A stretch of 64,000 bases of DNA from Candidatus Hodarchaeota archaeon. GTDB lineage: Archaea; Asgardarchaeota; Lokiarchaeia; Sigyniarchaeales; SOKP01. Shown here one piece after another: positions 29,677 through 47,741 of this stretch. The notes below the pieces were generated by a model, which was given only the letters and a program-made list of their open reading frames with translations, did not search any database and was not told where the DNA came from. The first letter of the stretch is position 1. Each line of letters starts with the position of its first letter. The position numbers were made by a program, and so were the translations under genes. The DNA is taken from assembly GCA_048887225.1 (NCBI GenBank), contig JBHLJY010000005.1, forward strand, positions 160,656 to 224,655, read 5' to 3'.

Positions 29677-31245
29677 TTATTCAGCATCCTTAATCTGGGT
29701 TAAATCATCAAAAATTTTGTATATATTTTGATCTTTTAATAAATCGTAGAGGTTTGCCGAAAAATTATAAATTTTATCGTATAATATATGACGATTTTGA
29801 TTGGGTAGCCATTTTTTATCAACTTTACATAAATTCTCTGCCGCTTTTGCTATATCAGGGAATAGCCCTGCTCCTGAAGCTGCTAATATTGCAGCTCCTA
29901 AAGAGGTCGCTTCCTCAATTATATTACGTACACATGTAATACCTAACACATCTGCGTAAATTTGATTCCAGAAATCTGAACGAGAACCTCCACCAGTAAG
30001 CAACAGTTCTTTCGGTTCAATATCAAGCTCTTTAAATATTTGGATGTTTTTCTTCACTTCAAAGGCAACACCTTCAAGTACAGCCCGATATAGGTCTCTT
30101 CTTTGATGGCCTAGAGATAAACCAAAAATTAATCCTTTTGCATATGGATTCCAGTGAGGAGCTCCAGCTCCAATTAAATGAGGGATTAAAATTAATCCAT
30201 TTGCTCCTATGGGTGATTTTTCAGCTTCAGCAGTGATTATATTATATGGGTCTTGTCCCTCTTCAGCAGCCATACATTCTGGTTGACCTACTTGATCTCT
30301 AAACCATCGAAGTGTAGCTCCAGAAGTAAAGATACTCGCCTCTTGAACCCAAGAACCTGGAATCGCATGACAGCTACATAAAACTCTTTTTTTTGGGTCA
30401 AATTTTGGCTCATTTAAATATGCTAAAATAAAACTACCCGTTCCTGTTGTACACTTGATTTCTCCTGGAGAAACAACTCCTACTCCTAGCGCCGCAGATT
30501 GTTGATCTCCAGCACCAGTAATTACTAAAGTTTTATTATCAAAATCAGTTTCATCATTAATTATTTCGCCAATATCGACTCCGCTTTCAAAAGGTTCAGG
30601 CATTTTATCTAAATCTATTCCCATTTCAGAGGCAATATCTTCTGAGTATCTTAAATTATTAATATCAAACAACATAGTTCTACTTAAATTACTATGATCA
30701 CTAACAAATTTCCCAGTTAATTTATATATAATAAAATCTGAAACTAACAAAAATTTATGAGCTTTTTGATAAATATCAGGCTTCTTATCTTTAAACCATA
30801 ATATTTTTGTAGAAGAAAAATAAGGATCTATTGTTAAACCCGTAATTTTGTAAATTCTATCAAGACCTATTTTGTTTCTTATAAACTCAACTTGATCAGT
30901 CGTACGTCTATCTTGCCAAACTAAAGCATTATGGAGTGGATTACCTTCTTTATCTACTGGAACAACTGTTTCTCTTTAATCTTTCGGAAAGAAGTTTTAA
31001 ACCGAAATTTGATTGGTGATAGAACAGCTAACTATTTCCGTCTTATCAATCCCGCTTTTGCTTATAGCGTTTTTAATCGTATCTTTTATGGAAATCCACC
31101 ATTCATTAGCGTCTTGCTCTACAAAAGAAGGTGAGGGATAATAGCTAGGATATTCTTTATAATCTGAACCAACAATAGCTCCAGCTAAATCAAAAATGTT
31201 TGTTCGACATCCTGTCGTACCAAGATCCAAAGATGCTACATACAT
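29677..31245 (-). CDS. FGGY-family carbohydrate kinase (glycerol-kinase-like), two exons: 31245-31009 and 30975-29677; spliced product 511 aa
   Basis: DLGTTG, VEQD, ITNQ|RETVV, VWQDRRT, DPYFSSTK, SRTMLFD, GDQQSA, TGTGSF, GAPHW, LEGVAF, GGGSRS, EATSLGAA. Both parts are in the same frame and exon 2 is stop-free from 30975. Confidence 0.85.
30976..31008 (-). other. Candidate 33-nt bulge-helix-bulge (BHB) intron in mRNA
   Basis: Minus strand AAUC-AA^A-UUUCGG-(14 nt)-CCGAAA-GAUU-AA^A-GAG: 4-bp central helix, two 3-nt bulges, 6-bp intron helix; excision gives AAU CAA AGA GAA ACA (NQRET). Confidence 0.8.
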
Positions 31246-46688: not shown

Positions 46689-46727
46689 CGCAAAAGTGAA
46701 CCTTAGAATTCTCTTTTATAAAAATTT

Positions 46728-47741
46728 TTATTTATTTAAAACTTGTTTTATTTTATCTAATATGATATCTATAACTCTTTTTAAATCCACATTACCTTTT
46801 AATGACGCTGCACCGTCGTGTCCACCAGCACTTCCTCCATACTCTAGAGATACTTCCTTCAAAATTTTACCTAAATGTAAGCCTGTTTTTAAACAAGTAT
46901 TTTTATTTGCTCTTATACTGATTCTATATTCTAATTTTTTCTCAGAATATACAACTCCTACATCACATCCTAATTTAATGAGTGAAGAGGCTACGCTTGC
47001 TTCATGATTTCCTACGTTTGTTAATCCAATCAACCAAGTCCCATCCCGAATTAACTGAACTCTTTGTACCGCTTTTATTTTTGAAATTTTTTTGGAAATT
47101 TCTTTTTCAACTTTTAGCATTGATAAGATTTCTTGATAATTTAATTGGTTGGATAAAAGTCTTGAAACTCGCAGTATAGTATCGTTATTTCCATGTTTGA
47201 AAAACCCAGAATCAGTTAAAATCGCCGCAATAAGAAGATATTTGTAGGGAAGCGATATTTTAACATTAAAATATTCACACATTTCGAATAGAATCTCTGC
47301 CGTAGAAGAAAACTTATCATCTATGATATTTAAAGACGAAATGTTATTGCTATACTCCTTTTCCAGATTTAAATGATGATCTAAAAAAACAAATGGAACA
47401 TTTGAATTTAAAATATTAAAATTGTTAGAAAATTTTACAAGATCTAAGTTATTAGTATCTAAGATAATAATAACATCAATTTTTTCATCATCGATTTCAT
47501 TTTTAAGGGATAAACTAATTTCAGGAAATTTCTCCTTAAGTCTAAAAAAAAAATCTTTGGTTGATTTAGAGATTTCCGGAAATATTAAATGAATGTCATC
47601 TGAATTAAAATATTGATTAAAAAAAAATTTTAAAATAAAACAAGACGCTAATCCATCTATATCAGCTAAGTCGTGAGTGGTAACTAAGACATTTTTATTT
47701 GTTAAAAAAATTTTAAAATCTTCAAATTTAGATTTTAACAT
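46728..47741 (-). CDS. DHH-family phosphoesterase
   Basis: HDLADIDG, LDT, DHH, TDSG.F, GGHDGAA. Confidence 0.92.
   Translation of the reverse strand: MLKSKFEDFKIFLTNKNVLVTTHDLADIDGLASCFILKFFFNQYFNSDDIHLIFPEISKSTKDFFFRLKEKFPEISLSLKNEIDDEKIDVIIILDTNNLDLVKFSNNFNILNSNVPFVFLDHHLNLEKEYSNNISSLNIIDDKFSSTAEILFEMCEYFNVKISLPYKYLLIAAILTDSGFFKHGNNDTILRVSRLLSNQLNYQEILSMLKVEKEISKKISKIKAVQRVQLIRDGTWLIGLTNVGNHEASVASSLIKLGCDVGVVYSEKKLEYRISIRANKNTCLKTGLHLGKILKEVSLEYGGSAGGHDGAASLKGNVDLKRVIDIILDKIKQVLNK

Follow-up and report, generated by a model that had tools for sequence, protein, structure and literature searches.

How is a sugar kinase made from a gene whose conserved active-site motif is interrupted by a short insert with two in-frame stop codons? 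The question is raised by an FGGY sugar kinase gene in a 64,000-nucleotide (nt) stretch of archaeal DNA, here called the window, which is positions 160,656 to 224,655 (forward strand) of contig JBHLJY010000005.1 from the Lokiarchaeia genome assembly GCA_048887225.1, deposited as Candidatus Hodarchaeota archaeon. The gene lies on the minus strand, from window position 31245 down to 29677, and reads ...ATC ACC AAT CAA, followed by 33 nt and then by AGA GAA ACA GTT.... The insert, at 30976-31008, sits in phase 0 between Q79 and R80 of the motif ITNQ/RET, and translation of the unspliced sequence gives ITNQ-ISV(stop)NFFPKD(stop)-RETVV, both stops being TAA. We consider it highly likely that the 33 nt are an archaeal intron of the tRNA type, built on the motif known as bulge-helix-bulge (BHB) and lying within the coding sequence, and that the kinase mRNA very probably has to be spliced.

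The two pieces that flank the insert make up one complete kinase. The upstream piece (31009-31245, minus strand), which we call exon 1, holds the 79 codons from M1 to Q79, and the downstream piece, exon 2 (29677-30975, minus strand), holds 432 codons beginning with R80 (AGA) and has its stop codon at 29677-29679. The Pfam profile FGGY_N matches exon 1 with its positions 1-78 and exon 2 with positions 79-245, followed by positions 2-196 of FGGY_C, and each of the two domains is matched over nearly its whole profile. Because FGGY_N continues from 78 to 79 across the insert, nothing was removed from the protein, and the 33 nt are a clean insertion between Q79 and R80. The kinase minus the insert has 511 amino acids (aa), the same length as an uninterrupted orthologue, P0001. 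An earlier description of this locus, made from the letters alone and referred to below as the sequence-only reading, had reported a kinase in two pieces split by exactly 33 nt with two stops in this motif, and an uninterrupted 511-aa enzyme after excision; the sequence, the continuous profile and the orthologue bear out both statements. The best matches of the kinase in the PDB are glycerol kinases (1e-83), and its closest NCBIfam model, with a score below the cut-off, is that for xylulokinase; P0001 scores 368 bits against XylB (cut-off 380) and 347 bits against GlpK (cut-off 590). In glycerol kinases, the R-E of TNQRET bind the substrate.

The archaeal BHB motif consists of a 4-bp helix and two flanking 3-nt bulges that hold the splice sites (PMC4090602). 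The kinase insert and its flanks can be arranged in this form (all positions on the minus strand). The central helix pairs AAUC of exon 1 (31011-31014) with GAUU within the insert (30978-30981), a pairing present in the minimum free energy (MFE) fold and supported by covariation. The 5' bulge, AAA at 31008-31010, is unpaired in both the MFE fold and the RNAalifold structure, and it leads into an inner helix of UUUCGG (31002-31007) with CCGAAA (30982-30987), which is recovered in the MFE fold, by covariation and by RNAalifold. The 3' bulge is AAA at 30975-30977, its third base being the first of AGA. The two bulges are on opposite strands, each on the 3' side of its strand of the helix. On the exon side of this bulge, G30974 can pair with C31015, and farther out the MFE fold contains a distal exon-exon helix between UAGCUGUU in exon 1 (31023-31030) and AACAGUUG in exon 2 (30963-30970). 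A cut after the second base of each AAA bulge gives ...AAT CAA AGA GAA..., with exon 1 ending in CAA; since both bulges are AAA, the intron borders can be shifted by -2 to +1 nt and the product stays the same.

It is the comparison across genomes, rather than the single fold, that points to structure beyond chance. We surveyed 161 Lokiarchaeia genomes, 152 of which have an orthologue of the kinase. An insert of 30-33 nt at the very same codon boundary is present in seven of these orthologues, from four genera of one family and with five distinct sequences; TNQRET is uninterrupted in the remaining 145. The present genome (G000) and G002, both of genus g1, have identical 33-nt inserts, and the 33-nt insert of G081 (genus g11) has three loop differences from that of G000. 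The inserts of G132 and G118 (genus g2) are 30 nt long, as are those of G017 and G062 (genus g9), which are strongly diverged from one another. Five further orthologues flagged in the survey as having stops inside (G073, G131, G151, G014 and G043) proved to have terminal stops and not inserts.

The five alleles align in register, and both AAA bulges are invariant, as is the C-G pair next to the 3' bulge. When RNAalifold was given the five alleles and no structure, it returned the central 4-bp helix, the 3-nt unpaired AAA on the 5' side and the inner hairpin. Compensatory changes, affecting both sides of a pair, are found in 8 of the 13 predicted pairs, and in the inner helix five of six pairs change on both sides. 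The central helix, for instance, reads AAUC/GAUU in G000 and G081 and AACC/GGUU in G017 and G062, and the pair 9-41 of the five-allele alignment alternates between U-A and C-G. With the full structure given, 95.7% of the cells in the alignment are paired, as compared with 26-63% when the partners are slid by one to three columns, and the covariation score was reached by none of 500 shuffles. The sequence-only reading had looked to orthologues for presence or absence of the insert and for compensatory changes in its helices; the patchy occurrence in four genera and the 8 of 13 compensatory pairs are of this kind. The codons at the junction are uniform as well: all seven intron alleles have ACC AAY CAA before the insert and AGR after it, while of 55 intron-less orthologues 14 have ACC, 35 have CAA and 29 have AGR.

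Both exons are under purifying selection. Pairs of intron-bearing lineages have a ratio of nonsynonymous to synonymous substitution rates (dN/dS) of 0.07-0.16 in exon 1, the value for G000 and G081 being 0.16, and of 0.04-0.09 in exon 2. Relaxed selection on exon 2, which the sequence-only reading had named as a sign that would speak against an intron, is thus not what we found. Furthermore, the first 75 codons of exon 2 in G000, G132 and G017 lack any in-frame ATG, GTG or TTG, and their dN/dS is 0.02-0.06. Codons that are constrained in this way and have no start of their own are evidently translated, and for this they must be joined to exon 1. The result speaks against a pseudogene, and also against separate translation of the two pieces.

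The first of these alternatives is that the insert, perhaps the footprint of a mobile element, inactivated the kinase and that the gene is now decaying. Two in-frame stops inside an active-site motif are what one would expect of such a gene, the insert is patchy among relatives, and the AAA at both of its ends can be read as a target duplication. The low dN/dS in both exons, and directly downstream of the insert as well, is at odds with decay, as is the fact that none of the seven intron alleles has a further lesion in the kinase gene; the helices of the insert, moreover, have been kept by compensatory changes. As for a mobile footprint, the genome (3.27 Mb, 98% complete) contains a single copy of the 33-mer even when up to three mismatches are allowed, and a covariance model built from the five alleles scores 72.7 bits at the kinase intron and 17.9 bits at its next match in the same genome. 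A weak match of this model falls within a membrane-protein region (C2:310974-311030), and we set it aside. No Rfam family matches between 30700 and 31300 at E ≤ 1; this, together with a length of just 30-33 nt, also removes a group I or group II self-splicing intron and a curated RNA family from consideration. A 3-bp target duplication or a dispersed footprint, which had been put forward in the sequence-only reading as its own alternative, is therefore not supported, and we regard a decaying or element-struck gene as very improbable.

A second possibility, to which we give equally little weight, is that the gene is truly split, with a product of at least 79 aa and the product of exon 2 associating non-covalently, or that the stops are read through with the addition of 10-11 residues. 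Both pieces are conserved, so some product of each must be made, as either version would require. A split gene is difficult to reconcile with the 75 strongly constrained exon-2 codons that lack a start. With read-through, the Q of TNQRET would be separated by 10-11 residues from the R-E, which in glycerol kinases bind the substrate, and the peptides that it would add, ISV(stop)NFFPKD(stop), ISEN(stop)FLEGQ, KFGDFSRIG(stop) and NSWNFSVIG(stop), are not conserved, while the RNA pairing is.

Alternatively, the ribosome might leave the mRNA at the end of exon 1 and land past the insert, in the manner of T4 gene 60 or the mitochondrial byp elements, with no splicing at all. The insert is short, forms a hairpin, contains stops and has identical 3-nt ends, all of which suit such a translational bypass, and in G132 and G118 the codon CAA stands both before the insert and as its last codon. 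In four of the five alleles, however, no landing codon matches the take-off codon CAA, the insert ending in TAA; the take-off codon is not directly followed by a stop (the next codon is ATT, AAG or AAT), and the inserts of G017 and G062 have no stop except their last codon. Conservation has kept a helix that links exon 1 to the 3' end of the insert and is flanked by two symmetric 3-nt bulges, which is a substrate for the splicing endonuclease EndA and not a bypass signal. Bypassing is not known to occur in archaea. We think that it is even less probable here than the two possibilities above.

That the insert is an assembly or binning artefact is suggested by nothing except the nature of the source genome, a metagenome-assembled genome (MAG) of 49 contigs, and can be dismissed, since the second assembly of the genus (G002) has the identical insert, five other assemblies have related ones, and a 690-nt contig from an independent sediment-metagenome study (run X5, record 17) spans it. 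That contig covers 30645-31245 with nine mismatches and no gaps, and it does not differ within the 33 nt. Misassembly, a concern of the sequence-only reading, is thereby excluded. In contigs of more distant relatives the alignment ends exactly at 30975, and one of these goes on as ...SVTNQRETI, the intron-less form.

The mechanism that we propose is as follows. In the kinase pre-mRNA, AAUC of exon 1 would pair with GAUU from the intron's 3' end, producing a 4-bp helix flanked by two AAA bulges, with a 6-bp intron hairpin on one side and, on the other, a weak outer helix backed by the distal exon-exon helix. A two-subunit EndA would cut inside both bulges, and the ligase RtcB would join the exons to ...AAU CAA AGA GAA..., restoring the active-site TNQRET and the 511-aa enzyme; the intron would probably be released as a small circle. 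The expected spliced junction is ...ACCAATCAA/AGAGAAACA..., which can equally be given as ...GCTGTTCTATCACCAATCAA/AGAGAAACAGTTGTTCCAG..., the back-spliced junction of the 33-nt circle would be ...CCGAAAGATTAA/ATTTCGGTTT..., and the spliced product would yield the junction peptide ...SITNQRETVVPVDK / ...ITNQRETVVPVDK. It follows that, if the intron is real, expression of the kinase would depend on splicing.

The genome encodes candidates for both enzymes. Two tRNA_int_endo genes, each about 200 codons long, lie at C1:186656-187258 (plus strand) and C3:60980-61582 (minus strand). The product of one (EndA alpha) retains the catalytic Tyr/His/Lys residues, has the catalytic subunits of Aeropyrum, Sulfolobus and Pyrobaculum as its best PDB matches, and aligns without gaps with the Aeropyrum catalytic subunit, the crenarchaeal loop region included. 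In the product of the other (EndA beta), Ser replaces the catalytic His. The host thus encodes, as judged from these alignments, a two-subunit EndA with a crenarchaeal-type loop that is predicted to be able to cut relaxed motifs, and Asgard archaea have been described as possessing an (alpha-beta)2 EndA with an L1 loop that confers relaxed-BHB specificity (PMC5829648). A single RtcB locus is present, on contig C13. This gene itself contains a 29-nt frameshifting insert of BHB shape (C13:33458-33486, plus strand; loci L104 and L105), with the Pfam RtcB match broken into 1-47 and 47-426; the shape is that of a textbook motif, with a UUGG/CCAA helix, bulges AUA and AAA and an 8-bp hairpin. Since rtcB is split in this way, the mRNA of the ligase would need the ligase for its own splicing.

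Several observations weigh against the interpretation of the 33 nt as a spliced intron. The fold of the single sequence is unexceptional (z = -1.55, with 16 of 200 shuffles folding equally well). The sequence-only reading had placed an AAA bulge on each strand; its AAUC/GAUU and UUUCGG/CCGAAA helices and its 5' AAA bulge are all present in the MFE fold, but the 3' AAA lies there in a 3x3 internal loop opposite ACC and does not form a clean bulge. That reading had also called the exon-side helix weak, and indeed the outer helix beside the 3' bulge has a single C-G pair and then mismatches, with pairing resumed farther out. The central helix has an A.C mismatch in G132 and G118, and the covariation is based on five sequences that represent about four lineages. 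The distal helix is just slightly stronger in intron alleles (about -8.6 kcal/mol) than in intron-less orthologues (-6.6), which partly share the complementarity. The only RtcB gene of the genome would need the same kind of splicing, which raises a bootstrap question that inherited protein could answer. Finally, there was no RNA-type run among the sequencing runs that hold the kinase gene, and so neither the spliced junction nor the circular intron has been observed; the lack of such runs is neutral with regard to splicing, and we infer the cutting and joining from the insert, its conserved covarying structure, the selection on both exons and the enzyme genes.

With an outer exon helix this weak, the predicted structure fits a relaxed BHB motif and not a strict hBHBh' motif. 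Across the alleles, the inner helix is 6-9 bp long and shows compensatory changes, and the outer side consists of the invariant C-G pair and then a distal exon-exon helix of 6-9 bp. The modelled distal helix may stand in for the weak outer one. We did not retain it as an intron-specific feature, several intron-less orthologues having an equally strong helix and the sequences being non-independent.

The distribution of the intron raises the question of how it came to be in four genera. In a tree of exon 2, the intron alleles are placed within their own genera and four changes are needed to explain them. In a tree of exon 1, G000 (g1) and G081 (g11) are sisters on a long branch, with support of 100/99. 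The approximately unbiased (AU) test, for which the groups were named after the trees had been seen, rejected the grouping of G000 with G081 for exon 2 (p = 0.013) and, for exon 1, the placement of G000 and of G081 each with its exon-2 sisters (p = 0.001 and 0.003). Exon 1 and the intron thus have a history that is different from that of exon 2.

A comparison of G081 (L073) with its intron-less congener G080 (L032) revealed that the kinase gene is, at the end that bears the intron, a sharply bounded recombination mosaic. From about 330 nt downstream of the intron site onward, the two are 97-100% identical. Between about -270 and +330 nt around the intron site, a region that takes in the whole of exon 1 and exon 2 as far as its first 330 nt, identity is 63-88%, and upstream of the kinase gene it falls to about 50% or less and the sequences are not recognisably homologous. 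This is most simply explained if recombination replaced the 5' part of the kinase gene and the intron was carried along. Given the patchy distribution (7 of 152 orthologues, four genera) and the distinct exon-1 sequence, the intron most likely spread, or was lost, through homologous recombination of the 5' part of the kinase gene between related lineages. Such a mosaic of exon 1 and intron offers a testable route by which an intron could spread with no homing enzyme.

The closest known system is the BHB intron in the pre-mRNA of cbf5, the pseudouridine synthase gene of Crenarchaeota (Watanabe 2002; Yoshinari 2006; Yokobori 2009, PMC2738675), in which the motif is often relaxed (PMC2738675). 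In the literature that we searched, which runs through 2026 and leaves subscription journals largely outside, cbf5 is the only archaeal coding sequence reported to be spliced by EndA, the 5' untranslated region (UTR) of Haloferax HVO_1309 is the sole other archaeal mRNA substrate, papers of 2020 and 2025 cite just these two, and there is nothing on introns in coding genes of Asgard archaea or Lokiarchaeota. Like the kinase intron, the cbf5 introns are short, lie in a coding sequence, often have a relaxed BHB motif, occur in hosts with a hetero-oligomeric EndA of broad specificity and are patchy among relatives, which has been read as gain and loss. They differ in that the cbf5 host is crenarchaeal and the gene product an RNA-modification enzyme, whereas the kinase is a carbohydrate kinase of an Asgard archaeon with the intron inside its active-site motif; in the kinase, moreover, exon 1 has its history in common with the intron and not with exon 2. 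The splicing of cbf5 was demonstrated by RT-PCR and by cleavage in vitro, whereas that of the kinase is deduced. Those predictions of a BHB intron that could be checked in the sequences all held, and on this evidence we think it very likely that this kinase, a metabolic enzyme of an Asgard archaeon, has a BHB intron of the cbf5 type in its gene.

Archaeal tRNA introns occur also at non-canonical positions and with relaxed hBH or HBh' motifs (Marck and Grosjean 2003; PMC4090602). The kinase intron shares with them the 4-bp helix between two 3-nt bulges and the presumed enzymes, but its substrate is an mRNA, with no tRNA body to aid recognition and with the exon-side helix nearly absent beside the 3' bulge. 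In Haloferax volcanii HVO_1309, a BHB intron lies in the 5' UTR, and its removal appears to matter for expression (PMC7714728). There, as would be the case for the kinase, an mRNA is the substrate of the tRNA splicing endonuclease; the HVO_1309 intron, however, is in an untranslated leader on which the reading frame does not depend, and the host enzyme is homodimeric and of strict specificity. The splicing of HAC1/XBP1 in eukaryotes, with cleavage by Ire1, ligation by RtcB in metazoa and regulation by stress, resembles the proposed kinase splicing in that a short intron is cut out of a coding mRNA at stem-loops, with no part played by the spliceosome, and in that the ligation is of the RtcB type. 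The endonuclease (Ire1), the RNA motif and the stress regulation set it apart.

The kinase intron is not the only insert of its shape in this genome. At least three further coding genes, for RtcB, an acyl-CoA dehydrogenase and a DeoC-type aldolase, contain one. The insert in the acyl-CoA dehydrogenase gene (C4:215764-215799, plus strand; L111:764-799) is 36 nt long, with a GGCU/AGCU helix and a 7-bp inner helix, and a paralogue on C26 aligns without gaps over the spliced junction (290 bits). The insert in the gene for the DeoC/LacD-type aldolase (C1:321212-321243, plus strand; L112:912-943) is 32 nt long, with a GCGU/GCGC helix and a 9-bp inner helix; the Pfam DeoC match (34-220 of 229) stops at the junction, which is bridged in the alignment with a paralogue on C2.

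The sequence-only reading had also envisaged a genome-wide scan of split genes for BHB motifs. A strict scan (4-bp central helix, 3-nt bulges, inner helix of at least 5 bp, intron of 14-150 nt) gave 99,427 raw matches, 744 of which fuse two open reading frames (ORFs); short lengths were not enriched among these, and most were junctions of neighbouring genes. One such ORF fusion within the window, through a 30-nt AT-rich motif at 46716-46745 (minus strand), was rejected: Pfam identifies a complete DHH/DHHA1 protein and, after it, an ABC-transporter ATPase as a protein of its own. This false positive indicates that such motifs easily arise by chance in an AT-rich genome. A relaxed scan gave 1.3 million raw matches with 18,691 ORF fusions, and a filter for paralogues that align across the junction reduced these to six rows from five loci, of which three are convincing, namely the kinase, the acyl-CoA dehydrogenase and the DeoC-type aldolase. 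Structure alone is too noisy for a genome-wide count, and the filter is blind to genes that have no paralogue.

Looking beyond the kinase, we lean slightly towards the view that Lokiarchaeia harbor a population of tRNA-type mini-introns of 28-36 nt across ordinary coding genes, including those of metabolic enzymes and rtcB, whose product their splicing needs; these introns would be gained, lost and moved between genera by recombination of flanking exons, in line with what the mosaic of the kinase suggests. If this is true, the archaeal lineage closest to eukaryotes routinely depends on mRNA splicing by protein enzymes, which may then be a regular process in the closest archaeal relatives of eukaryotes. 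Automatic annotation would take such genes for pseudogenes or fragments, gene catalogues would systematically contain false pseudogenes and split genes, and metabolic reconstructions would be distorted. The kinase intron provides a concrete substrate with which the Asgard EndA and RtcB can be tested.

The tRNA introns of the genome are built in the same way as the kinase insert, being hairpins of 28-31 nt with a 4-bp central helix. Examples are those at C1:335048-335075 (His), C2:237193-237222 (Val), C4:992-1022 (Asp) and C11:4182-4211 (Leu), and several are apparently at non-canonical positions. ARAGORN identified only 33 tRNAs in this 98%-complete genome; more disrupted tRNA genes were probably missed by the program. 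With regard to the host, which the sequence-only reading had described as Asgard-like, the relatives are Promethearchaeota (Lokiarchaeia) MAGs, so that it is indeed an Asgard archaeon. At loci L068, L070, L079, L087, L091 and L094, genomes that fall into one genus or family with Promethearchaeota MAGs carry the labels Thorarchaeota, Hermodarchaeota or Hodarchaeota, and the deposited taxonomy labels, including that of the 99%-identical G002, look inconsistent.

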